This document shows positions 10,027 to 62,545 of a stretch of DNA of 64,000 bases, piece by piece. A program made the position numbers and the translations under genes. The notes under the pieces were generated by a model that was given only the letters and a program-made list of their open reading frames with translations, searched no databases and had not been told where the DNA came from. The DNA comes from a virus. Where the stretch lies: positions 33,492 to 97,491 of IMG/VR virus record IMGVR_UViG_3300036790_000034. The stretch is one strand, 5' to 3'. Position 1 is the first letter of the stretch. Every line of letters begins with the position of its first letter.

Positions 10027-10035
10027 GAGTCTTTT

Positions 10036-10398
10036 ATGAACAGGGAGACTTTCCCTTCGTCACAATCACCACTGACAGGCGACATCAGCGGTGCGGCTGG
10101 GCAAACGAACGTCACCGTTGTCGGCCTCCAGACAATTCCAATCGACCCCACACCGCCGACAGCGGAAGAGGAACTTTATTATGATGTGGGTCTGCTCGAA
10201 TGGTCTCCGCGATTGGACGCGAACCGCAGTATCACACTCGGAACATTCGCGACTGACAGCGGGGATATTATTTCACGCGGCCAAAAGCTGAGTGATGATT
10301 ACGATTTTCTCGTCAACTGCGTCGGCCTTGAAGTTCTTGTAGGCTGGACGTACGGGTTTAGTTTTCAAGTATTTTGCAACGGCACGGGGGTCGCATAA
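10036..10398 (+). CDS. Putative tail-associated protein
   Basis: LTGDISG...TVVGLQTIPI tail-fibre-like motif; AGGAG RBS. Confidence 0.45.
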   Translation: MNRETFPSSQSPLTGDISGAAGQTNVTVVGLQTIPIDPTPPTAEEELYYDVGLLEWSPRLDANRSITLGTFATDSGDIISRGQKLSDDYDFLVNCVGLEVLVGWTYGFSFQVFCNGTGVA

Positions 10399-10400
10399 CT

Positions 10401-10883
10401 ATGTCAATCAATTTAAGCAATACTACACCTGCTGCACCTTCCGGCGGTACGAACATCCTCTGGCAGAGTGATGGTTCCGGGAATGTCTCTGGCTATGTCC
10501 AATCCGCTGTTGAACTCGTCGGTGATGGCGTTGACCTCACTGCCCAGACAGCCGACATCGGCCCGAACACTCTGGTCACTACGCCGAACGGCTACTATCG
10601 CATTTCGGCCTACCTCATCGTGACAACCGTGGATGGTGCGTCCTCGACGCTCCCGAAGCTGACAATCACATGGAATGACCTCGACAACGGACAAACCCAG
10701 ACCTTTGATTTGACACCAACTATATCGGGGGCGGGTTCCAACCTGTTGACCACGTTTGAGCAATCTGATATGATTGTTTCAGCAGGAAGTTCCGCCACTC
10801 TCGACTACGCGACCTCTGGGTATGCTTCTGGCACGCCCGCGACCATGCAGTACGCGATTCACATCCGAGTCGAACAACTGTAA
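10401..10883 (+). CDS. Putative tail-associated beta-sandwich protein
   Basis: Thr/Ser-rich; GYYRISAYL strand; module position. Confidence 0.45.
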   Translation: MSINLSNTTPAAPSGGTNILWQSDGSGNVSGYVQSAVELVGDGVDLTAQTADIGPNTLVTTPNGYYRISAYLIVTTVDGASSTLPKLTITWNDLDNGQTQTFDLTPTISGAGSNLLTTFEQSDMIVSAGSSATLDYATSGYASGTPATMQYAIHIRVEQL

Positions 10884-10907
10884 TTCTATCAAATAGAATG
10901 GAGGAGC

Positions 10908-11324
10908 ATGGGCATCGAAATTCGTCCGTTCTCAGAAACGGACATCCCATCGTTGCAGGCTGCTATCGACCGCGACACAATCCATCCCGGCGAGTGGAGC
11001 GTCAGACACTTCTATGACGACCCCGAAGACCCGGATGCACTCAACATTCCTAAAGAAGTGACCACGATGTCGGACCAACACGGCCCGATTGCTTTCGTGC
11101 GTTACACGAAATCGCTCCGCATTTCTTGCATTTGGGATGACGAAAAAGATGTTCATAGAAATGCTCGGGCAATTGTCGCCGGCATTCTTGACGCAGTACA
11201 AAAAGCTAGAGCCAGTGGTTTTACGGAGATAGTCATCCAAACACAAAGTGAGAAACTTGCTATCTTTTTCGAGAAAGTTCTAAGAATGAAGCGTAGCCGG
11301 GAAGAATTTTTGCTGCAAGTATAG
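10908..11324 (+). CDS. GNAT-like protein preceding the ejection proteins
   Basis: IEIRPFSETD start; ARASGFTEIV..T..EKLA.FFEK pattern; same position as GNAT-like virion genes in podoviruses. Confidence 0.5.
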   Translation: MGIEIRPFSETDIPSLQAAIDRDTIHPGEWSVRHFYDDPEDPDALNIPKEVTTMSDQHGPIAFVRYTKSLRISCIWDDEKDVHRNARAIVAGILDAVQKARASGFTEIVIQTQSEKLAIFFEKVLRMKRSREEFLLQV

Positions 11325-11334
11325 AAAGGCTCTC

Positions 11335-11748
11335 GTGAAGAAATCGAAATGTAGCCGAGGGCATCTCCTAACAAAAGACAACCTCATCATTAACCGAAAA
11401 GGTCGCCAATGTAAGAAATGTCATCGAGTTACTCAGCAGAGGTATCGTAAAACCCAGCAAGGTGTTTGGACTTCTAAATCGCGAGAAATCCGGGATTCTG
11501 GGTGGACATTAGAAAGATACCAAGACTTTTTGCGTGTCCAAGATAATGCTTGTGCTATCTGCAAAACTCCGTTTGAGCAATTTACAAGAAATCCTTCTTG
11601 CGACCACGACCACGCGTGCATGACCCCGCGAGGGTTGTTGTGTGATGCTTGCAATCTGGGAATCGGAAAGTTCAAAGAGAACCCTCTGCTCTTAGAACTT
11701 GCGGCTCAATATTTGAAGAAGTGGAAGGTATACGATGTGCGGACCTAG
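11335..11748 (+). CDS. Endonuclease VII-family homing endonuclease
   Basis: CSRGH..CKKC; QDNACAIC; DHDH...RGLLCDACNLGIG. Confidence 0.85.
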   Translation: MKKSKCSRGHLLTKDNLIINRKGRQCKKCHRVTQQRYRKTQQGVWTSKSREIRDSGWTLERYQDFLRVQDNACAICKTPFEQFTRNPSCDHDHACMTPRGLLCDACNLGIGKFKENPLLLELAAQYLKKWKVYDVRT

Positions 11749-12751
11749 TTCAGCCCTGAAAGCTGTCAATACTCAGATACAGAATCTCGCCACGACCGTC
11801 GGTGACGAGGGCCAACAAATCTTCGGTGATGCCAGCACGGTATTCAATAAGATTACAGGTGCTCTTAACGGCATCATCAGCGGTGGACCCGGCCAGAATG
11901 GATGGAGTGCTTCGGAGAACGCGGCACGTACCGCAGCAACAGTTCAGGCGGGGGCTACGGAAGCACGTAACCTCAAAGGTGCAGCGGCCTCGTCGGTCGC
12001 GGCCATTGGTGGCGGTAACACAGTCGCTCCCGCAGGCAGCACCCAGCAGATTGTCCAGAATGCCAACATTCAAGCGGCGTCTGATACCGCAGCGGGCCTC
12101 AACCAAAATCAAATCGCCAACGCTGAAGCAGGACGTTCGGAATTTAATACCGCCGTCCAGCAAGAAGAAGGTGCGACCCAGATGTTCAATCCGGCGACTT
12201 CGGCAAATCAAGTATCTGTCGGTGCCAACCAGTCAGCATTCCAGTCTCAATCCCAGATGGATACCCAAAGTAATTGGGCGATGAACGACATCATGAAACT
12301 CGGTGTCGCGGGCGTTCAAGGTCTCGGAACCGCGATGTGTCCGGCTGAGGGTAGCAAGTATCTCATGGCCGACTACATGGAACTCCCGGTCGAAACGCTC
12401 AACGTTGGCGACCGCATTCTCGGTATCGACGGTCTGCCAGAAACGATTCTGGAAATCCAGTCTTCGCTCATGCCGATTGTTCGAGTCGAAACGGAAGACG
12501 GTCATGTCTCGCGAAGTTCGAGGGTTCACGCCTTTGCACTTCCTCATGGCGGATTCGTTGTCGCAACGGACTCGATGAGCAAGACGATTCGTACCTCGCT
12601 CGGCAAGAGCAAGGTCATCAACATCAAGTTTGACGGCATGGCACGCGTATTCAACGTCATCACTGACGGGTCACACACTTATCGGGCTGACGGAATTTGG
12701 GCCTTGGGTGTGGGCGAAGCCGAACGTAAGACGATGGCACAGGGAGCATAA
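11735..12751 (+). CDS. Putative DNA-ejection (internal virion) protein with a C-terminal Hint domain
   Basis: Ala/Gln/Gly-rich helical N-terminus. Hint blocks: CPAEGS..LMAD...PVE.L.VGD.I, SRVH, VFNV.TDGSHTY.ADGI. Confidence 0.75.
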   Translation: MCGPSSALKAVNTQIQNLATTVGDEGQQIFGDASTVFNKITGALNGIISGGPGQNGWSASENAARTAATVQAGATEARNLKGAAASSVAAIGGGNTVAPAGSTQQIVQNANIQAASDTAAGLNQNQIANAEAGRSEFNTAVQQEEGATQMFNPATSANQVSVGANQSAFQSQSQMDTQSNWAMNDIMKLGVAGVQGLGTAMCPAEGSKYLMADYMELPVETLNVGDRILGIDGLPETILEIQSSLMPIVRVETEDGHVSRSSRVHAFALPHGGFVVATDSMSKTIRTSLGKSKVINIKFDGMARVFNVITDGSHTYRADGIWALGVGEAERKTMAQGA

Positions 12752-43521: not shown

Positions 43522-43806
43522 CTAAAATTTGTTGAGATAGTCGATTGCCTTCTGTAATCGTAACACGTCATCTTGGAAGAATCCAAGCCCTCTGTTACAG
43601 GGTCCGCAGATTGTTCCACGGAGACACTTGCCGCAACTTCTTCGACCCGGACAACACCGATGATTATGGTCGATGTGAGGCTTGACCATGAAGTCACCGC
43701 ACAATTGGCAGAGGGTTACTGCCTCACGAGCGGCTAGTTCTTTGGTCGAAAGTTTGTATCGCGACTTCTTGTTGGGAAGTCTGCGATTCGGTCGTACTCG
43801 CTTCAC
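43522..43806 (-). CDS. Endonuclease VII-family homing endonuclease
   Basis: CQLC; IDHNH.CC....SCGKCLRG.IC..CN.GLG.F.D. Confidence 0.85.
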   Translation of the reverse strand: MKRVRPNRRLPNKKSRYKLSTKELAAREAVTLCQLCGDFMVKPHIDHNHRCCPGRRSCGKCLRGTICGPCNRGLGFFQDDVLRLQKAIDYLNKF

Positions 43807-44951
43807 ATGTCTCCGTTAATCATAGGGTGCCCGTTTTGGGCCAGTTCCTTGACCTGTTTCCAGATTACCACACTTGCGTCCTTCCCGTCAAGCATGGAAA
43901 ACAAAATTGCTCGGACATCGACGTTCTCCGGCTTGGTGAACTCCAGAGCGTACGCCTTGCGGAAGGCTCCCAGATTGGCGAACTCCCCAGCGAGATGACG
44001 TGGTGCCATGTCACGAACCGTCCGCATGTAGACCTCGGTCGCTTGCTGCTGGAGTTCATCGTGACGAGCGGTCAAAGCCTTGACCCACTTGCGAACGAAC
44101 CCAGCGAACCACGGGGTCGAATTGGTGAGGTATTCCTGTAGCTCTGCCGCGAGATGCGGTTGGCTCAGGGACTCCCAGATGCGTTTCGGGCTGACTCCAC
44201 AGACCATACGATGCAGACGAAGATACTCGACGTACTTCATCTTCAGTCTGACAGGAGGCTTGCCGTCCTGATACCACGTCAGGACATAACCTTCATCGTT
44301 CTTCACGTCGTCAAGAGTGTGTTCCTTCGCCTCTTGCAACGTAATGAGATGTTGGTCCGGCGTGTTGTAGTCCGCCGACAGCGTCCGCAGTTTCACGGGC
44401 GTCATCTCTTCCCCGGTCTCGATGTTGACAAGAGCGAGGAGAACGAGTTCCTTCCGGTCGCCGTAGTTGACAACGATGCGGAGGTCGGGATGCAGACCCT
44501 CGAACATCGGAGTCCATCCCTCGGGAAAATTATTTTCATGCCGACGCAATTCAGCCGTTGCCCACTTCGCGTGAATGCTGTGGAAGCTGCTCTTGCTGGC
44601 CGCGTGCCACACGCCTTCATACTTGAACGCGGTGACCATGAAGCCATCCATCTTCTCCCAGACGGTCGGCTGGACACGAGCGTCGAACAGGACGCCCTCT
44701 GCTTGTGGAGAGCCGTAGTTGTGAAACTTCTCGAAGGGTCGGGCCACAATCTCCCCGGTCCAACGGTCCACAACGATGCCACGACACTTGGAGATGACAG
44801 AATCCCAATTGTCTTCTTGCTGACACTTCCGCGAGTACGTGAAGATGTTCAGCGGCAGCGTTTTGTGGATGCCCTCGGTGACCCACCCACCGTGCAGATA
44901 CTTCTCGGTGAACGTGTCTTGGTCGATGCCGATGTACTTGAAGAAGTTCAT
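43803..44951 (-). CDS. T4 Rnl1-type RNA ligase
   Basis: CRG.V.D...IVARPFEKF.N; EKMDG; EGYV; KMK..EY..LHR. Confidence 0.88.
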   Translation of the reverse strand: MNFFKYIGIDQDTFTEKYLHGGWVTEGIHKTLPLNIFTYSRKCQQEDNWDSVISKCRGIVVDRWTGEIVARPFEKFHNYGSPQAEGVLFDARVQPTVWEKMDGFMVTAFKYEGVWHAASKSSFHSIHAKWATAELRRHENNFPEGWTPMFEGLHPDLRIVVNYGDRKELVLLALVNIETGEEMTPVKLRTLSADYNTPDQHLITLQEAKEHTLDDVKNDEGYVLTWYQDGKPPVRLKMKYVEYLRLHRMVCGVSPKRIWESLSQPHLAAELQEYLTNSTPWFAGFVRKWVKALTARHDELQQQATEVYMRTVRDMAPRHLAGEFANLGAFRKAYALEFTKPENVDVRAILFSMLDGKDASVVIWKQVKELAQNGHPMINGDM

Positions 44952-44959
44952 GCTGGCTA

Positions 44960-45370
44960 CTAGCTGGTCAGAGGTTCGCCGTCAACCGCAGGCACGCTCA
45001 TCGCGGCGTCACACGCCTTGGTAAACGTCCGGCTGGCATCTTCGACAATCGCTTCTGCGTGCAGTTCTTTGTTGCCGGGACGGGACTTGCCTTGTATCCC
45101 GTGATGACGATACCGCTTCATGCCCGCGAACGTGAGATGCGGCGGGTTATTGAACGCAGGCTGCTCTACGACCGCAGGCAGTTCGTACTGGATGACCTTG
45201 GTCGGCTTGCCATCGACTTCAGGGCCATCGACTTCGGTCTTGATGAGCGTCTTGCCCAACTCGACGAGATTCAGACGACGTTGTTCGGCACGGACTCGCT
45301 TGCCTTCGAGATTCCGCAGTTTACGGTTGAGCCGCTTCGCTTGGCGTTGATGGTCCCTTGCTAATGTCAT
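44960..45370 (-). CDS. Hypothetical basic protein
   Basis: GGAGG RBS. Confidence 0.55.
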   Translation of the reverse strand: MTLARDHQRQAKRLNRKLRNLEGKRVRAEQRRLNLVELGKTLIKTEVDGPEVDGKPTKVIQYELPAVVEQPAFNNPPHLTFAGMKRYRHHGIQGKSRPGNKELHAEAIVEDASRTFTKACDAAMSVPAVDGEPLTS

Positions 45371-46445
45371 CGTTTGCCTCCGGGTGTTTGTCTCGATAGA
45401 TTTTCTTGCACGCCTCGCACTGGCTTCCGTCAGGCAGGCACTTACTCATTCTTGAACCTTTGTAGGCATCAGCCTTGTCGCATCGAATCTTAGCAGCCTC
45501 GGCCTTCGCCTGTCTAGCTTTTTCTTTGCGGGCCTCTTTGACATCCCGCATATCCTGCTCGGTGTCTTCGACGGACTGCTTCAGGTCCAATGCCCGCTTG
45601 AAGAACGAGAGATGCCGCTCGTGCATCTCATCTCCGAAAGAGAACCACGGCTCGAACTCAGCCGCATCATCTTTGCCCAGCCGGAGAATGACGACGCCGT
45701 CAAACTTCGTCTCGGGAAATTCTTCGACCTTCGCCTTCCAATAAAAATTTGCTTGGGCGAAGTAGGTGACTTGCACCTGATTGCTGGTCTTCAAATCGAG
45801 AACGACTCGCTTGTCTTTGAAAGCGGGGAACGCTTGGCACGGACATTCAGGACGGTCGCACGAGTCAATGAGCACGTCACCATCGAGCGTCCCGGCAACA
45901 AGCCACTCTCGCGAGACGACTCGTTGCTCTGCCGTGATGTAACGCACATTGTGGTCTGCGAAGAACGCAAGACAAGCAACAGCAGCGTTCGTAGCACGCT
46001 CATCTTCAGGAAACTTTGCCAGAATCTCCATTCGGCGTAGTTCATCGTCAGCCATCGTCGCTTTAACCAGAGATTCAACGAAAGAGTGAGCCTCATGGCC
46101 TGTGTCTCCTGCCCGTTCGAGCACATTCTTGTGTTCGTCCTTCGACGCCATCAGAATGCTGACCAACTCGTCGTAATCGACTTCGACGAATCCGTCCCGG
46201 CGGCGATTCTCTTGGAGCAGGAAGATGGCCCGTTCCATGAACAGACGAGTTGCCCAGCCAATCAACGCATTTGATTTGTCTACGATTTTAAGGGTATTGG
46301 TCACTCCGCTAATCGGAGTGAGTGAGCCGTCATCACCTTCGAGTAAATAGAGCCAGTGCTTCGGACTGAAATAAAGTCGCATCGTGTTCTGATAGTGGGA
46401 TAGTGGTCCACTCAAATCGGAGTATCTTTTCAGAATGAGGCTCAA
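45321..46445 (-). CDS. PD-(D/E)XK exonuclease (phage RecB-like)
   Basis: SGVT..L...K..L..W; G.EAH; AGTLD; DLKTS; Q..FY. GGAGG RBS before TTG 46445. Confidence 0.8.
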   Translation of the reverse strand: MSLILKRYSDLSGPLSHYQNTMRLYFSPKHWLYLLEGDDGSLTPISGVTNTLKIVDKSNALIGWATRLFMERAIFLLQENRRRDGFVEVDYDELVSILMASKDEHKNVLERAGDTGHEAHSFVESLVKATMADDELRRMEILAKFPEDERATNAAVACLAFFADHNVRYITAEQRVVSREWLVAGTLDGDVLIDSCDRPECPCQAFPAFKDKRVVLDLKTSNQVQVTYFAQANFYWKAKVEEFPETKFDGVVILRLGKDDAAEFEPWFSFGDEMHERHLSFFKRALDLKQSVEDTEQDMRDVKEARKEKARQAKAEAAKIRCDKADAYKGSRMSKCLPDGSQCEACKKIYRDKHPEANDDISKGPSTPSEAAQP

Positions 46446-46855
46446 TGATACCTCCGCAAGAACTTGACTACCATTTTCGCCATGCTCAAACGGTCTCCCA
46501 CCATAGCCAGTACGTGATTGTGTTGTGAGCAGAGCATGCACACTTGACATCGTTCGCAACCGTTTTCGCTTCGACAGCATTTCAATCGCTGCTGAAGTTG
46601 ATGGTTGTGATGTACGAATAGTCCTCGAACGCGTTTACAGCCGGGGAAACGGCATACCTGTCCAAGACGAAGAACTGTTCGTTTTCGTTTCTTTCTGTCC
46701 CAACGACGACGGTCGGCATTCCATTTCTCCCGATTTTCCGCACGGTGTTTCCGCTGCCATGCGAGTATACGGCTCACTTCCCTGCGGCGAAACGCACGAT
46801 TCTTACGTCGCTTTCGTTTGTACAGTCGTTGATACGTTTTCCGAGATGCCTTCAT
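46442..46855 (-). CDS. Endonuclease VII-like homing endonuclease (divergent)
   Basis: CRFPGC; VHHNH; CC....GC.RC...MLC..HN..L. Confidence 0.7.
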   Translation of the reverse strand: MKASRKTYQRLYKRKRRKNRAFRRREVSRILAWQRKHRAENREKWNADRRRWDRKKRKRTVLRLGQVCRFPGCKRVRGLFVHHNHQLQQRLKCCRSENGCERCQVCMLCSQHNHVLAMVGDRLSMAKMVVKFLRRYH

Positions 46856-47101: not shown

Positions 47102-47319
47102 ATTTTCTCACCTACCTTCGCAACAGCGTTGTTGAAGCGAACGTCGCTATTAACGCGGACGCGTTCGGTCTCCGCACGGAAGTGTTCGACCATTATAGCC
47201 GCGAGGTCCGCACGGAATTTCTTATCGCCCGTGCTGGCTGCGTGCATGATGTTGTTTGCGAACTCCCTTGGCGAGTAGTTCGGGCTTTTGATTTTTTGAT
47301 TTGCTTTCAGTTTTGGCAT
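47098..47319 (-). CDS. Hypothetical protein
   Basis: AGGAGG RBS. Confidence 0.6.
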   Translation of the reverse strand: MPKLKANQKIKSPNYSPREFANNIMHAASTGDKKFRADLAAIMVEHFRAETERVRVNSDVRFNNAVAKVGEKI

Positions 47320-48154
47320 TTATGCCTCCTAAAGTGTTGAGAATTTTCTTGACTGCGATACCACGTTCGAGGATACCTGATAATTCTTTTCCTGTCAAGC
47401 CGGGATGCCAGTACTTATTACTAATCCTTGTCTGGCTGCACGTTGTACACTCAGGGCTATGTAATCTATACCATTCTGATAATCTAACCCATGATGCCTT
47501 GCCACAGTCACATAGCAACTCAACTTCTTGATATATCTTAATTTTTCGTACTCGCAATACTCTCCGTCGTCCCTGCCTACGTCCTATATGCACCGGGAGT
47601 CTGCGATTAAAACTTTCACAGCTACGACAACGTAAAGCCCTCCCGCCGGAGAGAGCACCCGCTGCCTGCCATATGCGAGACCCGCAGACGCAGGAGGTTT
47701 GGACGAGAAGTTTCCCTTTGTAGCATTGTTTTTTAAGCACTGTGCGATTTCCGAAAGTCATACCAATTTTAACTTTGGAACGTCCCCGGAGTTCACATTT
47801 TGAACACCGCGAGGAACGAGGTACGGCATAAGCATATGCCCAGTTAATGGTCCCACAGTCGCACAGCATACGCCATTGAAGGTTCTTTTTCCTTCTTCTA
47901 GCTTTGATAACGGTGCGGGTTCCAAAACGTTGTCCTAACAATGTTTTTATCTGTCCTTGGCCACATTTTATGCACAACTTTGTACGACGGGCGTTCGCTA
48001 CTGTCATCCATATGGATATCTCACCACACTCGCATCGTAACTTTATCCAAGTCCCGGCGTCCTTCTTAATACTAACGACTACTCTCTTCCCGAATCTCTG
48101 GCCGACTTTTACATCTCGGGGTCTCATGTGTCGCTTTACGCGTTTAGTTATCAC
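47222..48154 (-). CDS. Protein of four tandem G.RFG.R.V...C.CG...C..C Zn repeats (homing-endonuclease-type DNA-binding modules)
   Basis: Four clear repeats; AT-richer than its neighbours; no nuclease domain seen. Confidence 0.65.
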   Translation of the reverse strand: MITKRVKRHMRPRDVKVGQRFGKRVVVSIKKDAGTWIKLRCECGEISIWMTVANARRTKLCIKCGQGQIKTLLGQRFGTRTVIKARRRKKNLQWRMLCDCGTINWAYAYAVPRSSRCSKCELRGRSKVKIGMTFGNRTVLKKQCYKGKLLVQTSCVCGSRIWQAAGALSGGRALRCRSCESFNRRLPVHIGRRQGRRRVLRVRKIKIYQEVELLCDCGKASWVRLSEWYRLHSPECTTCSQTRISNKYWHPGLTGKELSGILERGIAVKKILNTLGGINAKTESKSKNQKPELLAKGVRKQHHARSQHGR

Positions 48155-51268: not shown

Positions 51269-51799
51269 CTACCTCCCCGCCGCCGCCGCGAATGCGGACG
51301 ACGCCTGTTCTTCAGTCGCCTCAAGGTACACCATCGTGTTCTTGCCGTTGACGTGGCCCAGATACGTTTGCAATTCAGGGATGCCCATGCCGCCTTCGTA
51401 TCCGAGGCGACCACACGCGTGCTTCAATGCGTGAGCGTGGCACTTGTGCTCGGGCACGTTCGCCAGCTTGCCGTACCGACGCATCAGCCGATTGAACTGA
51501 CGACGGGCCGACTCGCGATTCTCAATCTCAGGCAGGAAGAAATAGCCTGTCGAGGTCGCGGCCAGTTTCATGAGTGCCTCACGTTCGCCGCCCAGCAATG
51601 GCTGTATCGTTCGCTTGCTGCCCTTCAGCCGTTGCACGTCGATGAGTTCCGCCGGAATGTTGTCCGCCGTCAGGCCCAGCGTCTCAGAGACGCGGAGACC
51701 ATGATTGAAAGTACACAGCAGCATAATCCAATGATTCTCGCTGTGCTTTTTGGCGACTTCCAGCAGAGCGTCTAGTTCCCCGACCGTGAGAGCCTTCAT
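51269..51799 (-). CDS. Small FimB/FimE-like tyrosine recombinase
   Basis: HGLRVSE; RLKGS; HAHALKHACG; YLGH; TMVY; catalytic domain only (176 aa). Confidence 0.85.
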   Translation of the reverse strand: MKALTVGELDALLEVAKKHSENHWIMLLCTFNHGLRVSETLGLTADNIPAELIDVQRLKGSKRTIQPLLGGEREALMKLAATSTGYFFLPEIENRESARRQFNRLMRRYGKLANVPEHKCHAHALKHACGRLGYEGGMGIPELQTYLGHVNGKNTMVYLEATEEQASSAFAAAAGR

Positions 51800-52215
51800 A
51801 AATTTCTCCTATCCCGAATATGATACCCGAGATTGCGGAGGAAGTCAACCATCTCCCGTTCACTAATCCCTGCTGGGTGGATACGGTACACGATGAGGTT
51901 CTTTATCCGGTTATCCGCCCGTTTTCCATTCCGATGATGCACAGTTTCGGATTCGCTTAACTCTCGCCCCAAGAAACGCTCCATGACGAGACGGTGGAGC
52001 ATCTTCAACTTCCCATCATACCAAATGTGAGCATACCCCTTCTTAGTAATAGGTTGTCGCGGCGTGCGTTTGTTTTTGACCAGCCTATCGAGGAGTCGCT
52101 CGATACGAAGGTTATTATGTTTTCGCTTTTCCTTCGCATTCCTGCGAAGGGCACACACTAAGCAGTATCCTTCGGGGGCCGAACATATAAATTGCCGACT
52201 TGTACCCATCGCCAT
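51796..52215 (-). CDS. HNH endonuclease (HNH_3-type)
   Basis: KGY; HRLVME..LGR.L...ETVHHRNG.R.DNR..NL. Start uncertain. Confidence 0.8.
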   Translation of the reverse strand: MAMGTSRQFICSAPEGYCLVCALRRNAKEKRKHNNLRIERLLDRLVKNKRTPRQPITKKGYAHIWYDGKLKMLHRLVMERFLGRELSESETVHHRNGKRADNRIKNLIVYRIHPAGISEREMVDFLRNLGYHIRDRRNL

Positions 52216-52327
52216 TTCTTGCAGAGGTCGCATAACAACCACACATGCCGACCCTCGGCAGCCCGAATGTGCAGATGCGGCCATCGTTTTCTAGCGGCAT
52301 CGAGGATTGAATAATTTGTCCAGCGGG

Positions 52328-53242
52328 TCATTCGCTCATATCCTTTGCATCTCTCCAGCCTTTCCAAAGCGGGTGACGCGGCTTGTCGATGGAACCGACC
52401 GGGAAATACTTGTACGTCAGAATCTTCCCGACGACCTTGCCCTTCTTATATTGCTCCCACACTGCCTTGCGTTCCGCGTGGGTCATCGGTGAGACCGCGA
52501 CATCGTGCAGGACGGTGTCGTAGGTGCCGTTGATGCTGCGGACCTCGAAGCCGCCCAGCGTGTCCTTCGCGACCTTGCCGTCCTTCGCCGCAGAGCGTGC
52601 CGTGCGTCCGAGTTCGTTCGTCGTGGCGACGTTTGTGTTCTCGTACTCAGGATAGCAGCCGACGACTCTCGCCTCGGCATCGACGAACCGTTTGACTTTG
52701 AGGAGAATGCCTTCCTTCTCCGATGAGCGACCGTGCTTGTACTCGTCGTAGAGCGAGTTGAGCATGACGCCCTCGTAGCCCTTCTCGATGCAGGCTTCCT
52801 CGAACGACATGAGTTCTTCAAGGTTCGAGATGGTCAAATGCGGAACAATGATAACGCCGTCGTCTTCGATGCTGAGGATGTGGCTGTAGCGATGAACGTA
52901 GTCGCCCGCGATTTGACGGTCGAAGATGTACCACTTCGTGTCGTCAGCGTTTGTCTTTTTGCCGGACTCCATGACGACACGACGGGTCCGGTCGTAGACG
53001 CCTTCGCCGCTGGGTGCCCCGGTAATCAACTCGCCGTCCAGCCCCGGATATTTCGCCGCAATCGCCGCGAGTTTTTCTTGGATGTGCGGGTTCGGGATGT
53101 CCTTCAGACTCCGGCTCCGCAGGATGCCGTCGTGTGCCGTCGCACGGATGCCATCCAGCTTCGGGCTTCCCAGCTTCGGAAATTGAATCGCTGCGAAGTC
53201 CTCGACGTTCGTCGCTAACATTGGCTTGGGAAATTTGCTCAT
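52328..53242 (-). CDS. Minimal ATP-dependent DNA ligase
   Basis: KPMLA; KLDGIR; DGEL; YEGVM; YKHGRS; LLKVKRF.D.EA; PRHP. Confidence 0.92.
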   Translation of the reverse strand: MSKFPKPMLATNVEDFAAIQFPKLGSPKLDGIRATAHDGILRSRSLKDIPNPHIQEKLAAIAAKYPGLDGELITGAPSGEGVYDRTRRVVMESGKKTNADDTKWYIFDRQIAGDYVHRYSHILSIEDDGVIIVPHLTISNLEELMSFEEACIEKGYEGVMLNSLYDEYKHGRSSEKEGILLKVKRFVDAEARVVGCYPEYENTNVATTNELGRTARSAAKDGKVAKDTLGGFEVRSINGTYDTVLHDVAVSPMTHAERKAVWEQYKKGKVVGKILTYKYFPVGSIDKPRHPLWKGWRDAKDMSE

Positions 53243-53421
53243 GCTGTCGCCGCCTTTGCCCTGAGAGATTCAGCGTTCGCCCATATCCACTGAGCGTGCT
53301 CCCGGTATTCCTGTCGGAGCAGCAGGTTCTTTGATTCAGACGACATCCGATGACAATATGCGAACGCCTTCTGATGGTCCTGATTAAACCGCGAGAGAAT
53401 CGCCAGCCGTGTCAGTTTCAT
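53239..53421 (-). CDS. Hypothetical protein
   Basis: GAGGT RBS; ATGA coupling on both sides. Confidence 0.5.
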   Translation of the reverse strand: MKLTRLAILSRFNQDHQKAFAYCHRMSSESKNLLLRQEYREHAQWIWANAESLRAKAATA

Positions 53422-53948
53422 TTTGTGTACCTCATAAGATTCTTGAATTCCTCGAATGTCCCATCCCTCTTGAGTTCGTTACAACGATAACATACAACTC
53501 GCACGTTGTCTAGAGTGTATCCTTTCGTATTATCCCATCGGTCGAGTGACGGGGAATCGCGTTTGTCGTAACCCCGACCTACGCTGTAGTCAAGCAGCTT
53601 TCGACAGCACGCACAATGCGTGGGTGGATTCGCTTTTAGTACATACTTCACTCGTAGCTCGAACGGATGACCCCGACGCATAGCTTTCGCAAACAACGCG
53701 ACTAAACGATTTTCTGGCTTTGAATTCCATCGCTGCCACGATGCTCTAAGTACGCGGGGACATTTCTTTTGATAGGCTCTTTGCCAAGCCCGGATTTTCT
53801 TACGATTCTTTCGACGATACGCAGCAGCTTTCTTAAGACGATTTTCTCGATGACGACGATAACTATTAGCGTCGTTTGCTGTTTTCTTATCCGGGTTACA
53901 GCCAGCCCACTGTCGCATGTATTCTCGATGTTTTGTTTTCTGGCTCAT
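53418..53948 (-). CDS. HNH-type homing endonuclease
   Basis: CACC; SPSLDR.DN.KGY..DNV.VVC.RCN..K. Confidence 0.85.
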   Translation of the reverse strand: MSQKTKHREYMRQWAGCNPDKKTANDANSYRRHRENRLKKAAAYRRKNRKKIRAWQRAYQKKCPRVLRASWQRWNSKPENRLVALFAKAMRRGHPFELRVKYVLKANPPTHCACCRKLLDYSVGRGYDKRDSPSLDRWDNTKGYTLDNVRVVCYRCNELKRDGTFEEFKNLMRYTK

Positions 53949-54790
53949 CTAAATTTCCTACCTGAATTTCCCCACAATAACAAGTCCGCATCACCGCTCG
54001 TTGGTTTCTGTTCTGCGTTTGCAACCTTCTGTCGTTTGAATTCTGCGAATGCCGCTGCTTCTTCGTTGTCGAGATTCGCTATCGCGGCCTTCGCCGGACT
54101 CACCTTGCCGAGTCCGTACGTGTGTTTGACGTTGATGATGTGCTTGCAGTCCTTGCGTGGGGAGTGCTGAGTGAATGCACGGCAAGAGCAGGCCCAGCCA
54201 TCCGCCGACGTGCCGCCGTCAACTTTGTTTTTCTTCGAGACGATGTACGGCTCTTTCGCGGAACCCTGATAGCCCCACTGCTTTGTCCACAGCGGCGAGG
54301 ACGACGCGGGAATCTCCCAGATGTCGCCTTCTTCCCGCTTCAACAGGACAGGCTTCTTGATGGGCGAGTTGAACTGGTTGGAAAAATTCGTCACGGGTTT
54401 TGCTTTCTCCATCCCGATTTCTTTCATCCAGTCATGCTTGTTCTTCATCATCGCCTTCTTGTCCTCCATGTGGCAATCGACGCATGTGTTGCCCGCGTAC
54501 GTCTCGTGAACTTTCTTGTTGCACTTCGAGCACTTCAGGTCGAGGTCGAGTCTATATTCTACCAGCATCCCGCTCGTGACGCAAGCCTGATTCCACTCCG
54601 CGATGAGAGCGACCGCATCCTCGAACGTCTTCGGCTGAAGTGCTGTGCCGAACCACTCGGTAATCCAGCCGCCGCCTTTGTAGTCCGCCGTCTTCGGGAA
54701 GACAACGCCGCCCTTTGACTTCTGGAGTAGCCGACGCTGATAGACGCTCCACTGAACGTGCTTACACTTTCCTTTTGCTGGAGCACTCAT
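53945..54790 (-). CDS. SWIM zinc-finger protein
   Basis: GS...PY.V; WACSC.AF......CKHI; C-terminal GRKFR. Confidence 0.7.
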   Translation of the reverse strand: MSAPAKGKCKHVQWSVYQRRLLQKSKGGVVFPKTADYKGGGWITEWFGTALQPKTFEDAVALIAEWNQACVTSGMLVEYRLDLDLKCSKCNKKVHETYAGNTCVDCHMEDKKAMMKNKHDWMKEIGMEKAKPVTNFSNQFNSPIKKPVLLKREEGDIWEIPASSSPLWTKQWGYQGSAKEPYIVSKKNKVDGGTSADGWACSCRAFTQHSPRKDCKHIINVKHTYGLGKVSPAKAAIANLDNEEAAAFAEFKRQKVANAEQKPTSGDADLLLWGNSGRKFR

Positions 54791-56361: not shown

Positions 56362-56805
56362 TTATGCCCACCCCGGCTTTTGCAGTTGTGGTTCATAGAC
56401 AATCTCGTCCGGTAACACCAGAGCAAAATGGTCCGCGTTGAATCGTGAGTGATTGCTGACAATGCCGCCATTCTTGCTGCGATACGCCGTCCTCACTTCG
56501 ATGCGAAGCAGCTTCCCGTCTTTCAAAATGGCGAGGTCGCATGAGCAAGCAGGACTGAGTGCTCGAAAGACCTCGTAGCCCTTCGCGAGTAGGTCCACCG
56601 AGACTCGTAATTCTGAGATGGCTCCAACCGTCCCGGTATTGATGCCGGGGTATGCCGACTGGCACCCGAGACTCTTGTTGTAGTGTGCCGTCTGGCATGG
56701 CACACTGTGGAACTTCTGATTCACGCGGCGAGTCTTGAAGGACACCCCGCATGGACAAATGACTTCTCTGAGTGGCTGGCGTTGACCGCCATAGGTATCT
56801 GGCAT
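56362..56805 (-). CDS. PD-(D/E)XK homing-type endonuclease
   Basis: G..SE..V..DL..KG..VF; DL; RIEVRT; N-terminal Zn module. Confidence 0.75.
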   Translation of the reverse strand: MPDTYGGQRQPLREVICPCGVSFKTRRVNQKFHSVPCQTAHYNKSLGCQSAYPGINTGTVGAISELRVSVDLLAKGYEVFRALSPACSCDLAILKDGKLLRIEVRTAYRSKNGGIVSNHSRFNADHFALVLPDEIVYEPQLQKPGWA

Positions 56806-57024
56806 ATAATCCTCCGTCTAAGGCCATAATAGCCGATTAACGGTCGATTGTCAATCAAATCCACCACCACCAGCACCACATTTTCCGTTCGTCCGTCTCC
56901 GATGTTTGTAGCTCGATTCTCGGGGATTCTACCTTGTAGACAAGTCCACAGATTCGACATCGAAAGCCGAACCCGTGGACCTCCAGCCTCAGTTGCCCAC
57001 AGCGTGAGCACACCATGACGCCTC

Positions 57025-57843: not shown

Positions 57844-58041
57844 CTACCTCGTGATGCAGGTAGTCTTGGTCGGAAGTTCGTGGTACTCCGGCTTCTGCTT
57901 CATGGCTGTCACGTCGCCGCCTAGAGCCTTCGAGACCGCCTCTTGAATCGCATGGCATCCTTTGCCGTGGAATCCTTTGAGGTCCAGTTCAACGTCGCCA
58001 GTCTCAGGGTCGATTGTTACGATTGCAATTTCGCCTGCCAT
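57844..58041 (-). CDS. DUF2997-like protein
   Basis: I.I...G.V.....GF.G..C......LG.......KPEY. Confidence 0.75.
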   Translation of the reverse strand: MAGEIAIVTIDPETGDVELDLKGFHGKGCHAIQEAVSKALGGDVTAMKQKPEYHELPTKTTCITR

Positions 58042-58060
58042 GTTGCCCTGCTTTCTGCGA

Positions 58061-58501
58061 CTAGAACGTCGCGGTCATCTTCATGTACTTGATTTGAATC
58101 TTGCCGTTGACCATCTCTTTGCCGAGATACTTGAACCCGTTCTTCGCGAGTTCTTTCTTGACTCGCTTGTCCGAGTAAGATGTCTTCAGGCCAGCCAGCC
58201 ACTTCGTGTTGTGCTTGCCGCTGTCGTACTGCGAGATGATAGCGTCATAGCACTTCGTGACGGGGTCCAGTTTGAAGCCGAGGTCGTTGGCTACTCCACC
58301 GACGTGATTGCGACGGACGATGATGTTCGCCTTGTCACCAGTCTTGTCGAGGTAATGGGTTGGACGCCCGTGCCAGTCGTAAAGCTGCTGGGGCACTTCG
58401 TGATACTCGATGTGCTCACGCTTGTAGCCCATCTCGACAAGGGCGTCGATGAGAACTTCCCGGTCCTTACATTTTGTGGTCGTCTTTCGATATTCGCTCA
58501 A
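58061..58501 (-). CDS. DUF1257 / Ycf35-like protein
   Basis: T..KD...L..AL..MG; A.I.VR.......NDLGF......Y.AI...YD; Y.......A..NGF. Confidence 0.75.
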   Translation of the reverse strand: MSEYRKTTTKCKDREVLIDALVEMGYKREHIEYHEVPQQLYDWHGRPTHYLDKTGDKANIIVRRNHVGGVANDLGFKLDPVTKCYDAIISQYDSGKHNTKWLAGLKTSYSDKRVKKELAKNGFKYLGKEMVNGKIQIKYMKMTATF

Positions 58502-58878
58502 GGCTTTGTCCTCCGATTCAGAATTTTATCCCAGCGTTGTAGATACCGCAAGGCTTTCTTTACCAGTCTTGGCGAATCCTCGAACCCGCCGAGGCTGGTA
58601 TTACATCTCGGACACAGCACCCCACGTCGGCACCGTATGCAGCCATTTCGTGGAACGTGCGTACAAAATCGTTTAGCGGTCTCGTGACTGTGGTCGAGGT
58701 TAAACTTAGTCAGTCGCCGTTCGCAAATTTCACAACGTTTGGCGATGTCACGTAACTGTTTTCTCCGTTGTCTACGACGGGCGTTGTTGTGCTCACGAAG
58801 GCGTTTCTTGTCCGCCGCGTATCGCCGCTTTCCGTATGCCCTCATCCGTGCTAAATTTTGTTCGCGTGTTAGCGGCAT
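58498..58878 (-). CDS. Endonuclease VII-family homing endonuclease
   Basis: CEIC; LDHSH; GC.RC.RGVLC.RCN..LG.FED. Confidence 0.85.
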   Translation of the reverse strand: MPLTREQNLARMRAYGKRRYAADKKRLREHNNARRRQRRKQLRDIAKRCEICERRLTKFNLDHSHETAKRFCTHVPRNGCIRCRRGVLCPRCNTSLGGFEDSPRLVKKALRYLQRWDKILNRRTKP

Positions 58879-58882
58879 TCTT

Positions 58883-59245
58883 TCACCCCTTCAGAAACCA
58901 TTCATTCAGGAATGCGACTTCGGCTTCGATAGCCTCTTGTCGATTCTTAAATCGCTGGAGTAGTATCACGCCAGCCGTTGGCCGGGTATCGACCAACCAC
59001 TCAGTCTGCCACTGCCTCGTCCAATCCGCGACACGTCCTCGCTCACCAAAGAATGTACGAAGTAAACGAAACACTTGGCGATACCCCCAATTCGTGGGGA
59101 GTACATGAGATGCACGGGCGGTCACAACTTCTCCAAGTTCCGCAAAAATATCGTGTTCGGAAGTTTTGAGGTATACTAAATTCCCCTCTTCGTCGATGGT
59201 GACCGTCAGCACTTGCTGCTCTGGCTTTGCGAATAGCTTGTCCAT
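58883..59245 (-). CDS. Conserved unknown protein of AAA/DUF1257/DUF2997 clusters (RASHV.P family)
   Basis: LG.V...RASHVLP ... W.VD..P..G.....F..R.EA..AE..FL. Confidence 0.6.
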   Translation of the reverse strand: MDKLFAKPEQQVLTVTIDEEGNLVYLKTSEHDIFAELGEVVTARASHVLPTNWGYRQVFRLLRTFFGERGRVADWTRQWQTEWLVDTRPTAGVILLQRFKNRQEAIEAEVAFLNEWFLKG

Positions 59246-59284
59246 AAGTCCTCTCTGAGAATACAGCCGGGGGAGGGCTGTTGT

Positions 59285-60202
59285 CTAGCGGAACTTGCGT
59301 CCCGTCTCTTGAACCAGAACCGCAGCCGTCTGTTTGATGACTGCGACCTTGTCTGCAACGTACTTCTTGAGGTTCTGTGACTCGCGAATCTTGTCCATCG
59401 TCACGCCCTTCAGGATGCTACGGAGTGGGGAGACGACTTTCTCCTGATACTCAGCATCACCCGCGAGGTCGCGATTCGTGAACGTGTCCAGATACTCGGT
59501 GAGGTTCGTGATTGTGGTGTCGAAAAGTTTCTTCGACTTGCCAGTGACAGGGTCAGGCGTCAACGCGTTGACCAGAGCATCGACCGCCGTCATGCCCATC
59601 ACTCGCATCGTGTCACGCCATTCAAGAACTGCCTCGTGGCGAATCGCGAGTTCCTTCTCCAGTTCCATCGCGACGATGAAGTCCGGCAGACCTTCGAGGT
59701 TGATGGCACCGACCGGACGGATGTTGAACGTGAACGAGAAGCCAGCTTCGACTTCATCTGACTTCGGATAATCACCACGGTCAAACTTATCACCGAGTGC
59801 TTCAGCGATTGGCTTGAAGTCTACCGCTTCGAGTGCTCGGTAGGTCGCCATGAACTTCGCGACCAGAGACGGACGACGAATCTCTTGATACGCACGCAGC
59901 GACTTGTATATCGCCGCGAGTTCCGTCTTCTGGATGAAGCGAGTCGCTTTGCTGTAACGTGACGACTTGCTGTCGATGTGACGCGTCATGTAGCCGTCTT
60001 GACTGCGAATCTCATCGAGTTCAGGAGAGTCAATCAACTGCTTCTGGTGACGCAGGAGAGTTTTATCTGCTGTCGTGACCACTTCGAGGTTGCGAATCTG
60101 ACGCATCCTGCCTATCCCCATCGTGGTGTGCGTTGTGATGAAAACACAAGCCTCAGTTTTCTTGAGGCTCACAGAGGCTAACGCGGGTGCGGGTGCTGAC
60201 AT
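59285..60202 (-). CDS. DUF3150-like protein
   Basis: K.L.D..EL..I; LGD.F...DYP..DEV...F.F; C-terminal GRKFR. Confidence 0.65.
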   Translation of the reverse strand: MSAPAPALASVSLKKTEACVFITTHTTMGIGRMRQIRNLEVVTTADKTLLRHQKQLIDSPELDEIRSQDGYMTRHIDSKSSRYSKATRFIQKTELAAIYKSLRAYQEIRRPSLVAKFMATYRALEAVDFKPIAEALGDKFDRGDYPKSDEVEAGFSFTFNIRPVGAINLEGLPDFIVAMELEKELAIRHEAVLEWRDTMRVMGMTAVDALVNALTPDPVTGKSKKLFDTTITNLTEYLDTFTNRDLAGDAEYQEKVVSPLRSILKGVTMDKIRESQNLKKYVADKVAVIKQTAAVLVQETGRKFR

Positions 60203-60518
60203 TGGATTCTCCTAGCCACTTTGCAGCGGCGGTTATGAGTTTGAGACTATCCTCGAACTTACCAAGCCCGAGGTTGCAACTGTGGCAGAGCAAACCACGA
60301 AACTCTTTCGTGTCATGATTGTGGTCTGCACAAGGTCGCAAGGTTTCGCTGAACTCCCGCTCACAGATGCCACAGCGATTATGTTGCTTCGCGATGGCAC
60401 CCGTGAATTGTTCAGGAGTGCAGCGTCCGTTCCTTTGTCGATAGTAGAGACTCAACCGTTCGTGGTTGCGTGCCTTATACCGACGATTCTTAGCAAGGAT
60501 GTTTGGGGGAGTTTTCAT
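60153..60518 (-). CDS. Endonuclease VII-family homing endonuclease
   Basis: QHNRCGIC; DHNH.T..FRGLLCHSCNLGLG.FED. Confidence 0.85.
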   Translation of the reverse strand: MKTPPNILAKNRRYKARNHERLSLYYRQRNGRCTPEQFTGAIAKQHNRCGICEREFSETLRPCADHNHDTKEFRGLLCHSCNLGLGKFEDSLKLITAAAKWLGESNVSTRTRVSLCEPQEN

Positions 60519-60527
60519 GAGCACATC

Positions 60528-62102
60528 CTACCTGAACTTTCTACCATCCTCACTTGGGACAATGGATGGCTCGTACTTCGTAACCGGGGGCGAGTATTTG
60601 TAGACTCCCGGCTTGCTGGCCGACAGGAAGCGGCCAGTCGCATAGTTGCGGAGGTTGTCCATCTGCTCACGGTGAGATGAGAGCAGCGGAACGACGTGCT
60701 GTCCGGCTTCGGTGAGGTCCATCCCCATTGCCTCAGCCTTGAATGCACAGTTGTTCACGTCGCGACCAGTCCAGTCGTCCATCTTCGGAAGCGGCTGTTT
60801 CGGGTCCAGTTTATACTTGGCAATCTTCAACTTCATGATGCCCTGTTTCTCAGCCTCATCGGGCACGTCGAAGAAGTAGATGCCGCCGACTTGGAACCGC
60901 GAGATTAGCTCAGGTGGCAGACCGTCGAGCGAGTTCGCGGATGCAATCAACCAGATGCGAGGATTGCTGACGCCCTCGACACCGCCGCTGATTGCGTTGA
61001 GCACCTTGTGAGCGGTGCGTTGATGACGTGACGACTTGCCAACGTGCTCGTGTTCCATCGCGGGCAGCGAGTATTCGATGACAGGTGTCTCGAACTCACC
61101 GCCGATGCAGAACACTGACCATGACTTCGACGAACCCGGAACGCCGAGGAGCAGCGTGCAGACCACGTCGTTGTCGTTGACCCACGTCAACCATTCACCA
61201 AGCAGGTTGCCCTTGGTGCCGGATGAGTCTGTGCCGTTGCCTGAGAACTGACGTTGAATCTCATCCATGCGGACGATGACGTTGGGCCGATACTTGCCCG
61301 CGAAGAACTTGTTCGCCAGCGTGCGGATGACATCGCAGCCGTACATGTCCTTCAACGTTTCGCCTTTGTTGATGTGATACGTCAGCCCCGGATTGGCAGA
61401 GACGATTGTCTTTTTGCGTGACCAGAGGGACGCGAAGTCCATCTTGCCAGTCTTCATGTCGAGCGACTGAGAGAAAGCCTGCTCTGCCGGGAATGCCGGG
61501 AGGCCGATGGTAGCGGCCACGCATTTCTCAATCACTTCAGCCGTCGCTGCATTCTTGCACGCGGGATACTTCTGTGCCGCGTACGCGAATGTGTCAGTGA
61601 CAATCTTCGCGAGTTCTTCGCGAGTGGGCAGTGGCTCCTCAAGCACCAGCATGTCCTGCTGAAGTTCGCCGGGGAGTTCATCGCCCATGCCTACAAGGTT
61701 GACCAGCATGTTGCCGCGTGCCTTGTAGAGATTGCGACAGTTCCATTCGGCCTGAATGACTCGCTGGTCTTTCTCCCAGACCAACTGCGGATTGTGAATG
61801 AATGCGATGACATCCTCTTTCGCTTTCTCAAGAGTCGTCAACGCCAGCGTGAGGTCCACAGTCGCGGCCAACTCGCCGCCGACTTCAGATGCCATCTCGT
61901 TCAGTGCCTCGCCGCCAATCTTGTTGAGGCCGACCAACCCGTGTATGCTATCCCACGACACAAGCGGAGTTAAGGCAGCTAACTCTTTGCCCAACGATTT
62001 TGTGATGCTTTGAATAGTACTTGATGGGTCAAAGGTTCGCACGGTTACTAAGGGCGTTGATATCGCTCGTGCCGAAGAGAACATATCAATGAAGGACTTC
62101 AT
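60528..62102 (-). CDS. Ycf46-like AAA+ ATPase with swapped Walker B / Walker A segments
   Basis: Inactive-looking N-domain (WD...GL; LP.EL...LP.REEL). Then VIVRMDE..DSSGT..WLTW, then LLLGVPGSSKS, then ASAN..LPPEL..RF, FFDVP. Confidence 0.8.
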   Translation of the reverse strand: MKSFIDMFSSARAISTPLVTVRTFDPSSTIQSITKSLGKELAALTPLVSWDSIHGLVGLNKIGGEALNEMASEVGGELAATVDLTLALTTLEKAKEDVIAFIHNPQLVWEKDQRVIQAEWNCRNLYKARGNMLVNLVGMGDELPGELQQDMLVLEEPLPTREELAKIVTDTFAYAAQKYPACKNAATAEVIEKCVAATIGLPAFPAEQAFSQSLDMKTGKMDFASLWSRKKTIVSANPGLTYHINKGETLKDMYGCDVIRTLANKFFAGKYRPNVIVRMDEIQRQFSGNGTDSSGTKGNLLGEWLTWVNDNDVVCTLLLGVPGSSKSWSVFCIGGEFETPVIEYSLPAMEHEHVGKSSRHQRTAHKVLNAISGGVEGVSNPRIWLIASANSLDGLPPELISRFQVGGIYFFDVPDEAEKQGIMKLKIAKYKLDPKQPLPKMDDWTGRDVNNCAFKAEAMGMDLTEAGQHVVPLLSSHREQMDNLRNYATGRFLSASKPGVYKYSPPVTKYEPSIVPSEDGRKFR

Positions 62103-62545
62103 GATTTAGCTCCTGATTGGAATTTGTAAACTTTCGCAATGTGTTCAAGATATTGGTCTTGGCTCAGAGTTCGTTTAGCGAGGTTATCGACGTTGCAACA
62201 AGGCAAACAGTTTTCTATCTGATACCCAATTGCATTGTCTGCTCTGTCGATACCTAGCGATGGTGTCTGTCCGCAATAAATGCAAGGGCTGTTCATCATC
62301 GCCACGAAAATATCATATGGCAACTCGAACACAAGGCCACGTTTGACAGCGGAATTACGGTACGAGCGGTAGACGCCCTCGGGTTTGCATCGAGGACAAT
62401 AAGAACGTTGGCGAAGGTGTGAACAGACGCCATTGCCCTTACAATCAACACATTGATATTTATGTCTACCGTGAGGACATGTCGAGGCACCACCACATTC
62501 GGCACAACGACATAATCTATGACCGTGCTTGCATTTTGTTTTCAT
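62099..62545 (-). CDS. HNH-type homing endonuclease with C.HG repeats
   Basis: CKHG/CPHG repeats; CIYCG; GIDR.DN..GY...NCLPCC..DN.AK. Confidence 0.85.
   Translation of the reverse strand: MKTKCKHGHRLCRCAECGGASTCPHGRHKYQCVDCKGNGVCSHLRQRSYCPRCKPEGVYRSYRNSAVKRGLVFELPYDIFVAMMNSPCIYCGQTPSLGIDRADNAIGYQIENCLPCCNVDNLAKRTLSQDQYLEHIAKVYKFQSGAKS

Follow-up and report, generated by a model that had tools for sequence, protein, structure and literature searches.

A five-gene module built around a rearranged AAA+ ATPase recurs on phages, plasmids and integrated elements

The AAA+ ATPases Cdc48, p97 and VAT are motors of two stacked AAA domains that work with dedicated partner proteins, and the cofactors of p97 bind it through short motifs. 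Short peptides also serve as docking tails on proteasome activators (HbYX, GQYL), where an AAA ATPase and unrelated non-ATPase proteins bear the same C-terminal peptide. In cyanobacteria, the genes for DUF2997 and Ycf35 are neighbours beside fed7, although the published arrangement covers DUF2997, Ycf35 and fed7 only and not adjacency to an ATPase (PMC4284462). The ATPase Ycf46 (slr0374) is encoded in a stress operon, and its function and mechanism are not known (PMC7496141). Here we analysed a stretch of 64,000 nucleotides (the window), comprising bases 33492-97491 of the 97,491-bp IMG/VR virus record IMGVR_UViG_3300036790_000034, which is rated complete and whose ends share 127 identical bp. 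The whole stretch is present in one soil metagenome, from which it probably derives. Its positions 57844-62102 hold genes for an AAA+ ATPase, a DUF3150-like protein (p305), a small protein with an R[AG]SHVEP motif (p120, RASHVEP protein), a DUF1257 (Ycf35-type) protein and a DUF2997 protein. We found these five genes to be a conserved, co-inherited and widespread module of mobile DNA that is not specific to phages. We propose, at a probability of roughly 0.45, that the module is an entry-phase protein-remodelling machine of mobile DNA with partners docked through a shared C-terminal tail.

Seven co-oriented genes lie on the minus strand at 57844-62102. In the direction of transcription these are the ATPase (524 aa, 60528-62102), a free-standing Endonuclease VII (123 aa, 60153-60524; Pfam E 1.9e-14, PHROG endonuclease VII), p305 (305 aa, 59285-60202), p120 (120 aa, 58883-59245), a second free-standing Endonuclease VII (126 aa, 58498-58878; Pfam E 2.5e-12), the DUF1257 protein (146 aa, 58061-58501) and the DUF2997 protein (65 aa, 57844-58041). 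The 3' end of the first endonuclease gene overlaps the start of p305 by 50 nt. Five related IMG/VR contigs (L002-L006) were retrieved by means of an alignment of the ATPase. In L002, L005 and L006 the order is AAA-p305-p120-DUF1257-DUF2997 with short gaps, and the Endonuclease VII genes are absent from the ATPase/p305 and p120/DUF1257 junctions; both are therefore insertions, and the preliminary description of this DNA was right to see five co-oriented genes interrupted only by two endonucleases. In contig L003 the p305 gene lies upstream of that for the ATPase, and variable HNH pieces occupy other junctions, flanking the ATPase; L004 stops just past the ATPase. Contigs of other sequencing runs left the two Endonuclease VII genes uncovered, but none of them bridges these genes, so they have no bearing on the insertions. 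At least four more HNH/Endonuclease VII-type genes lie between conserved minus-strand genes of the window (62099-62545, 53418-53948, 51796-52284 and 47222-48154). The first of these, an HNH/Endonuclease VII-like homing endonuclease (PHROG endonuclease VII/HNH), is directly upstream of the ATPase on the same strand and overlaps it by 4 nt. Free-standing homing endonucleases cluster in this minus-strand region, which is a hot spot for them.

All five genes occur together in four of the related uncultured phages (L002, L003, L005 and L006) and, within 4.7 kb, in the cultured Tunturiibacter phage Tunturi_3 (97.6 kb, Acidobacteriota host), where their order differs (gp103, gp102, gp101, gp99, gp96). 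A plasmid of Ca. Manganitrophus (Nitrospirota; CP114559) carries the order AAA-DUF1257-DUF2997-DUF3150 followed by an 84-aa p120 homologue, with toprim, helicase, JAB, Fic and ParB genes as neighbours. We then scanned bacteria, taking one genome per species and ATPases of normal motif order, which yielded 80 loci, mostly from Planctomycetota and many on contigs that end early. Local hidden Markov models (HMMs) placed DUF1257 in 51 of them, DUF2997 in 52, a DUF3150-like protein in 40 and a p120-like protein in 35, and any other family in at most 9. For these canonical relatives, the expectation that such ATPases adjoin DUF1257 and DUF2997 in bacteria is thus upheld. The flanks contain DUF5906/VapE primase-helicases, PD-(D/E)XK nucleases and serine and tyrosine recombinases, and the bacterial loci are integrated mobile elements.

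Through a search of plasmid records, we identified 710 that hold a relative of the ATPase (E up to 1e-20), of which 592 are conjugative, chiefly enterobacterial. The one examined in detail, the IncC plasmid pM214_AC2, encodes in its backbone the ATPase, DUF1257 (E 8e-10), DUF2997, a 377-aa protein and a p120 homologue (E 2e-6), with ParB, an orphan DNA methyltransferase and HU in the region. The 377-aa protein stands at the position of DUF3150, and hhalign detected no link between the two, so that by sequence comparison four of the five families are present in the IncC backbone. Cluster O mycobacteriophages (Catdawg) have a canonical ATPase relative, and sequence searches of Catdawg detected no DUF1257, DUF2997, p120 or DUF3150; the only hint in this cluster is a weak fold match to a Dylan protein. 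The five families therefore co-occur elsewhere, on phages, plasmids and bacterial elements of several phyla. The reading that they are unrelated neighbours kept together by descent in one phage lineage, to which the shuffled gene order in L003 and Tunturi_3 might seem to point, is already contradicted by this co-occurrence in differing orders across unrelated phyla, where start codons overlap with stop codons, and we regard it as extremely improbable. Judged from gene order and content, the grouping of the five genes goes far beyond chance. In the searchable literature, including mentions of DUF1257, DUF2997 and DUF3150, the set is described nowhere, and the IncC backbone literature contains no functional data on the module genes; the suggestion that this was an undescribed system has accordingly stood.

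The ATPase itself is unusual in the order of its motifs. Pfam AAA (PF00004) matches it at 26 bits against a cut-off of 21.2, and only partially (profile positions 78-124); an NCBIfam search returned only noise. More than 200 metagenomic relatives share 54-87% identity with it, several of them on contigs of about 95 kb. Across 65 of these, R278, D280 and E281 (Walker B), G320, G323, K326 and S327 (Walker A), N390 (sensor 1) and R402 (arginine finger) are invariant. The canonical linear order runs from Walker A through the pore loop and Walker B to sensor 1, whereas in the phage protein the Walker B block (residues 273-313) precedes Walker A (GVPGSSKS, residues 320-327). In a profile search of PDB sequences, residues 318-373 corresponded to VAT from Walker A through helix 2 and residues 360-452 to VAT after Walker B, with no Walker B between the two aligned segments. 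BLASTP against the normal-order homologue of the Ca. Manganitrophus plasmid gave a full-length alignment (E 3e-25, 24% identity) in which the phage ATPase has about 36 extra residues ahead of Walker A (VIVRMDE...LTWVNDND) and lacks the block that follows helix 2 in the plasmid protein (CVLFIDE...LTWLNDRTS). Given the extra block before Walker A and the missing block after helix 2, we conclude that one strand-helix block has moved, which agrees with the earlier view of this ATPase as rearranged. The order with Walker B before Walker A is found in 119 of 120 relatives and in Tunturi_3 gp103; the normal order is kept in the bacterial relatives, in Catdawg gp97 and in the homologues on the Ca. Manganitrophus and IncC plasmids.

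In an AlphaFold (AF2) model of the ATPase (predicted local distance difference test, pLDDT, 87.8), the active domain contains five strands and the tail is floppy; we infer the sheet order from secondary structure and homology. The model matched p97/Cdc48 in Foldseek (E 1.7e-12) and superposed on D1-D2 of p97 (p97 residues 210-764) with Z 18.4 over 410 residues and a root-mean-square deviation (rmsd) of 4.6, and the N-terminal half is therefore taken as a degenerate AAA tier. The ATPase is thus predicted to be a p97/Cdc48-like two-tier motor with no separate N domain, in which the upper tier (residues ~1-250) is AAA-like, degenerate and devoid of a Walker A motif and the lower tier, by alignment, retains every catalytic residue. 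Pore loop 1 reads H-V-G (353-355) opposite K-W-V-G of VAT and L-V-G of the canonical relatives. The module would resemble Cdc48, p97 and VAT in its two stacked AAA-like domains and classical-clade motifs, and in combining a motor with dedicated partner proteins and short shared peptides. It differs from p97 in the absence of an N domain, of Walker A in the upper tier and of the aromatic residue in pore loop 1, in the placement of the Walker B block before Walker A, and in partners that are unrelated to any p97 cofactor.

On another reading, the motor would be the reader arm of a ubiquitin-like (Ubl) tagging pathway, unfolding proteins marked by co-encoded Ubl, E1, E2 and JAB proteins as Cdc48 does. 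The ThiF (E1-like) family occurs in the flanks of 7 of the 80 bacterial loci, and a weak Prok-JAB match lies near the module in locus L015. However, most bacterial loci are free of ThiF and JAB within 6 kb, and searches of the complete phage record for ThiF and Prok-JAB found no match, which sets it apart from Bil/Bub-type ubiquitin-like conjugation systems with an AAA motor, defined by an E1 (ThiF) and a JAB. Since the phage genome has neither gene, a co-encoded ubiquitin-like pathway is not required, and we give this explanation only a slight chance.

The module may also be compared with the Ycf46, Ycf35 and DUF2997 proteins of cyanobacteria and plastids. DUF1257 and DUF2997 are families common to both (Pfam), and the canonical relatives of the phage ATPase carry the JGI name 'SpoVK/Ycf46/Vps4 family'; the likeness of the phage ATPase to Ycf46 was drawn through these canonical bacterial and plasmid relatives. 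The phage set differs from the cyanobacterial and plastid one in residing on mobile DNA, in its additional DUF3150 and RASHVEP proteins, in its shared tails and in its rewired ATPase. ATPases of the SpoVK/Ycf46/Vps4 type serve as antitoxins in sgiAT (PMC10954446), a precedent for the view that the module is a defence, exclusion or addiction module protecting its carrier, comparable to the toxin-antitoxin pairs that SGI1 and pTiC58 build from an AAA ATPase and a protease. Its variable flanks and its carriage on integrated elements do resemble defence islands. By contrast, PADLOC-DB gave only a weak, partial TRIP13 match on the ATPase (E 3e-4, 51 residues) and called no system, neither a protease nor any other effector is encoded in the module, and the genes form a conserved core set of many phages, one of them cultured. 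We therefore consider a defensive or addictive role improbable.

We next turned to the partner proteins. A direct search of p305 against Pfam gave no match even at E up to 10, PF11348 (DUF3150) included. A profile of 28 p305 relatives nevertheless reached 3639 cluster representatives at E up to 0.001; of 44 distant relatives, 13 matched PF11348 (best E 1.8e-7) and one matched a protein that NCBI names 'DUF3150 domain-containing', which the p305 family HMM scored at E 4e-34. The AF2 model of p305 (pLDDT 93.9) matched a BFVD 'DUF3150 domain-containing protein' with a TM score of 0.74-0.77 and comprises a small beta sheet, long helices and a C-terminal four-helix bundle, with GRKFR at its end. 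A comparison with PDB folds found only generic four-helix bundles (Z ~9 over 100 residues), and a PDB sequence search with DUF3150 yielded nothing significant. From the profile searches, the NCBI-named homologue and the fold, p305 is a remote member of DUF3150; among the family names first given to these genes, AAA, DUF1257 and DUF2997 pass in Pfam and DUF3150 holds by this indirect route. Public gene calls begin p305 at Met33 (273 aa); that start is probably wrong and the upstream ATG at 60202 likelier, because conservation in the family alignment begins at about residue 13. The p305 homologue of Tunturi_3, gp96 (10690-11649 of locus L009), is entered in GenBank as an 'HNH endonuclease' and is in fact DUF3150-like.

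The remaining three products are small. For p120 we found no Pfam match (E up to 10), no PHROG match and no significant PDB relative; its family is small, is marked by the R[AG]SHVEP motif and has a clade-specific insertion in the phage proteins. In 32 bacterial loci a p120 homologue comes immediately after the DUF3150-like gene, the median gap being -4 nt, and homologues are also present in Tunturi_3, the Ca. Manganitrophus plasmid and the IncC plasmid. The DUF1257 assignment (PF06868) is marginal, since its score of 22.5 bits, or 22.3 bits when the genome was searched, barely exceeds the cut-off of 22.2; it is backed by a family alignment with bacterial members. Serine at position 2 of DUF1257 is invariant across phage and bacterial proteins, within M-S-H in bacteria, a pattern that suggests that the N-terminus itself may matter. 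The DUF2997 protein (PF11211; 27.5 bits against 24.1) carries the motif G-F-x-G-x-x-C, in which G-x-x-C is invariant and C29 is the single invariant cysteine. PDB sequence searches with DUF1257 and DUF2997 returned nothing significant. DUF1257 adjoins DUF2997 in 51 bacterial loci, again with a median gap of -4 nt. DUF1257-DUF2997 and DUF3150-RASHVEP are accordingly two fixed, translationally coupled pairs, and the gap of -4 nt in both suggests stoichiometric sub-complexes.

The preliminary description had also singled out a GRKFR tag, and this proved to be shared by four proteins. Exactly four proteins of the 97-kb genome end in GR[KR]FR, far above a chance expectation that lies well below one: the ATPase, p305, an accessory protein (53945-54790, minus strand) that bears the SWIM-like motif CxCx(n)CxH and ends in GRKFR, and a Cys-rich coiled-coil protein. 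The four genes share a strand and fall in a section of the circular map of about 16 kb. The last lies outside the window at genome bases 4876-5775; it has 299 aa, a coiled-coil C-terminal half and the ending GRRFR, and it belongs to no Pfam or PHROG family. The SWIM-like protein does not match the Pfam SWIM model and has the CxCx(n)CxH motif only; both motif and tail are kept in L003, L005 and L006. The tail is retained in 116 of 120 relatives of the ATPase and 117 of 120 relatives of p305, and it is probably flexible in both proteins, as indicated by the low pLDDT of this segment in their models.

Basic tails extend beyond these phages. The wider DUF3150 family has (G/S)RKFR near its end, in many members with a few acidic residues after it, and in Planctomycetota the ATPase ends in ...RRRVSRDPSxN and the DUF3150-like protein in ...RPRRNILRRPR. 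The IncC ATPase ends in GRKLAIED. Three adjacent hypothetical proteins of pM214_AC2 (8738-11792 of locus L092) end in [GD]KRKIILD. A loose basic motif was found in the last 30 residues of 32 of 80 bacterial ATPases, 31 of 35 DUF3150-like proteins and 26 of 655 other open reading frames (ORFs). The modules of the Ca. Manganitrophus plasmid, the Planctomycetota elements and the IncC plasmid hold the same families, DUF3150 in IncC excepted, and basic tails, and differ from the phage module in gene order and in having Walker A before Walker B. The phage tail is like the HbYX and GQYL tails in being shared by an ATPase and unrelated non-ATPase proteins; it differs in that it is basic, has no tyrosine and, among distant relatives, does not always sit at the terminus, and no peptidase or ring receptor was identified in the phage case. 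Most likely the tail serves as a docking peptide, and in the simplest case all its carriers would share one receptor. More tentatively, we suggest that it could be a portable address code that mobile elements attach to unrelated proteins, a prokaryotic equivalent of the network of p97 cofactor motifs, with a rewired AAA+ motor driving it.

On the reading that we favour, the five genes would encode one self-contained AAA+ remodelling machine that travels on mobile DNA. The motor would form a ring, and the flexible basic tail, R-[KR]-hydrophobic-R, on the ATPase and on the DUF3150, SWIM-like and Cys-rich proteins would plug all of its carriers into the same receptor, which might be a small partner or else the dead upper tier. 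In this way adaptors and clients would be delivered to the motor, which may pull them apart or unfold them. The machine might be active soon after the element enters the cell, and its targets might be the protein or nucleoprotein complexes by which the element is established or replicated. The genomic context includes DNA ligase, exonuclease and RNA ligase in this phage, primase-helicase, PD-(D/E)XK nuclease and integrases at the bacterial loci, and ParB, toprim and helicase on the plasmids, with a DNA methyltransferase in IncC. A search of the phage genome for a beta-clamp found no match.

Several points weigh against this proposal. Pore loop 1 is without its usual aromatic residue, so that substrate threading is not assured. 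The basic tail motif was defined after the data had been seen, and in distant relatives it does not stand at the very end. Neighbouring genes vary between elements, so that the client cannot be read from context. The basis for early expression consists of a consensus promoter match, and we infer the association, oligomeric state and activity of the products.

The preliminary description had suggested an ATP-driven remodelling or host-takeover machine. A conserved set around a predicted ATP-driven motor was indeed found, while host takeover became just one of several readings, given that the module is also carried by plasmids and integrated elements. On that account, an adaptor-steered motor would extract or unfold host defence or housekeeping proteins just after entry. 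The module lies in a presumed early phage region, the IncC region also holds the orphan DNA methyltransferase, a ParB-like protein and HU, and in the sample examined all carriers are mobile elements. No likeness to known anti-defence proteins was seen, however, and a core that stays the same in hosts as different as Acidobacteriota and Enterobacteria speaks against a target peculiar to one host. We consider such a counter-defence role unlikely, and retain the entry-phase remodelling machine as the preferred proposal.

The putative promoter is a sigma-70-like consensus on the minus strand at 63356-63329 (TTGACA-16-CATACT, 10/12 in a consensus scan only), upstream of the gene string, from which the module would be transcribed early. 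Two near-consensus sigma-70-like sites (11/12 each), pointing apart, lie just downstream of the module at 56782-56854. Farther downstream on the same strand are an ATP-dependent DNA ligase (52328-53242), an exonuclease (45321-46580) and a T4-type RNA ligase (43803-44951). The ORFs at genome bases 269-1057 and window positions 47222-48154 have the C-terminal residues HARSQHGR in common and are about 80 kb apart in the record, or about 17 kb across its ends. A blastn search of the region against phage records found no match. A peat metatranscriptome library contains contigs that match the DUF2997, DUF1257 and ATPase genes (window positions 57851-58495 and 60916-61949) at about 90% identity, which hints at, and does not prove, transcription of relatives of the module in peat.

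If our proposal is true, it would supply a common functional frame for four Pfam-level orphan families and for the long-orphaned Ycf46-type ATPase. The moved Walker B block offers a natural test of how far the AAA+ fold tolerates rewiring, and the module is amenable to study in E. coli or in the cultured soil phage. It is found widely, on phages as well as on integrated elements and conjugative plasmids. Among IncC resistance plasmids at least one has the module, and a close relative of the ATPase is encoded by several hundred further enterobacterial plasmids. A role in entry or establishment, if true, would therefore bear on the spread of mobile DNA.

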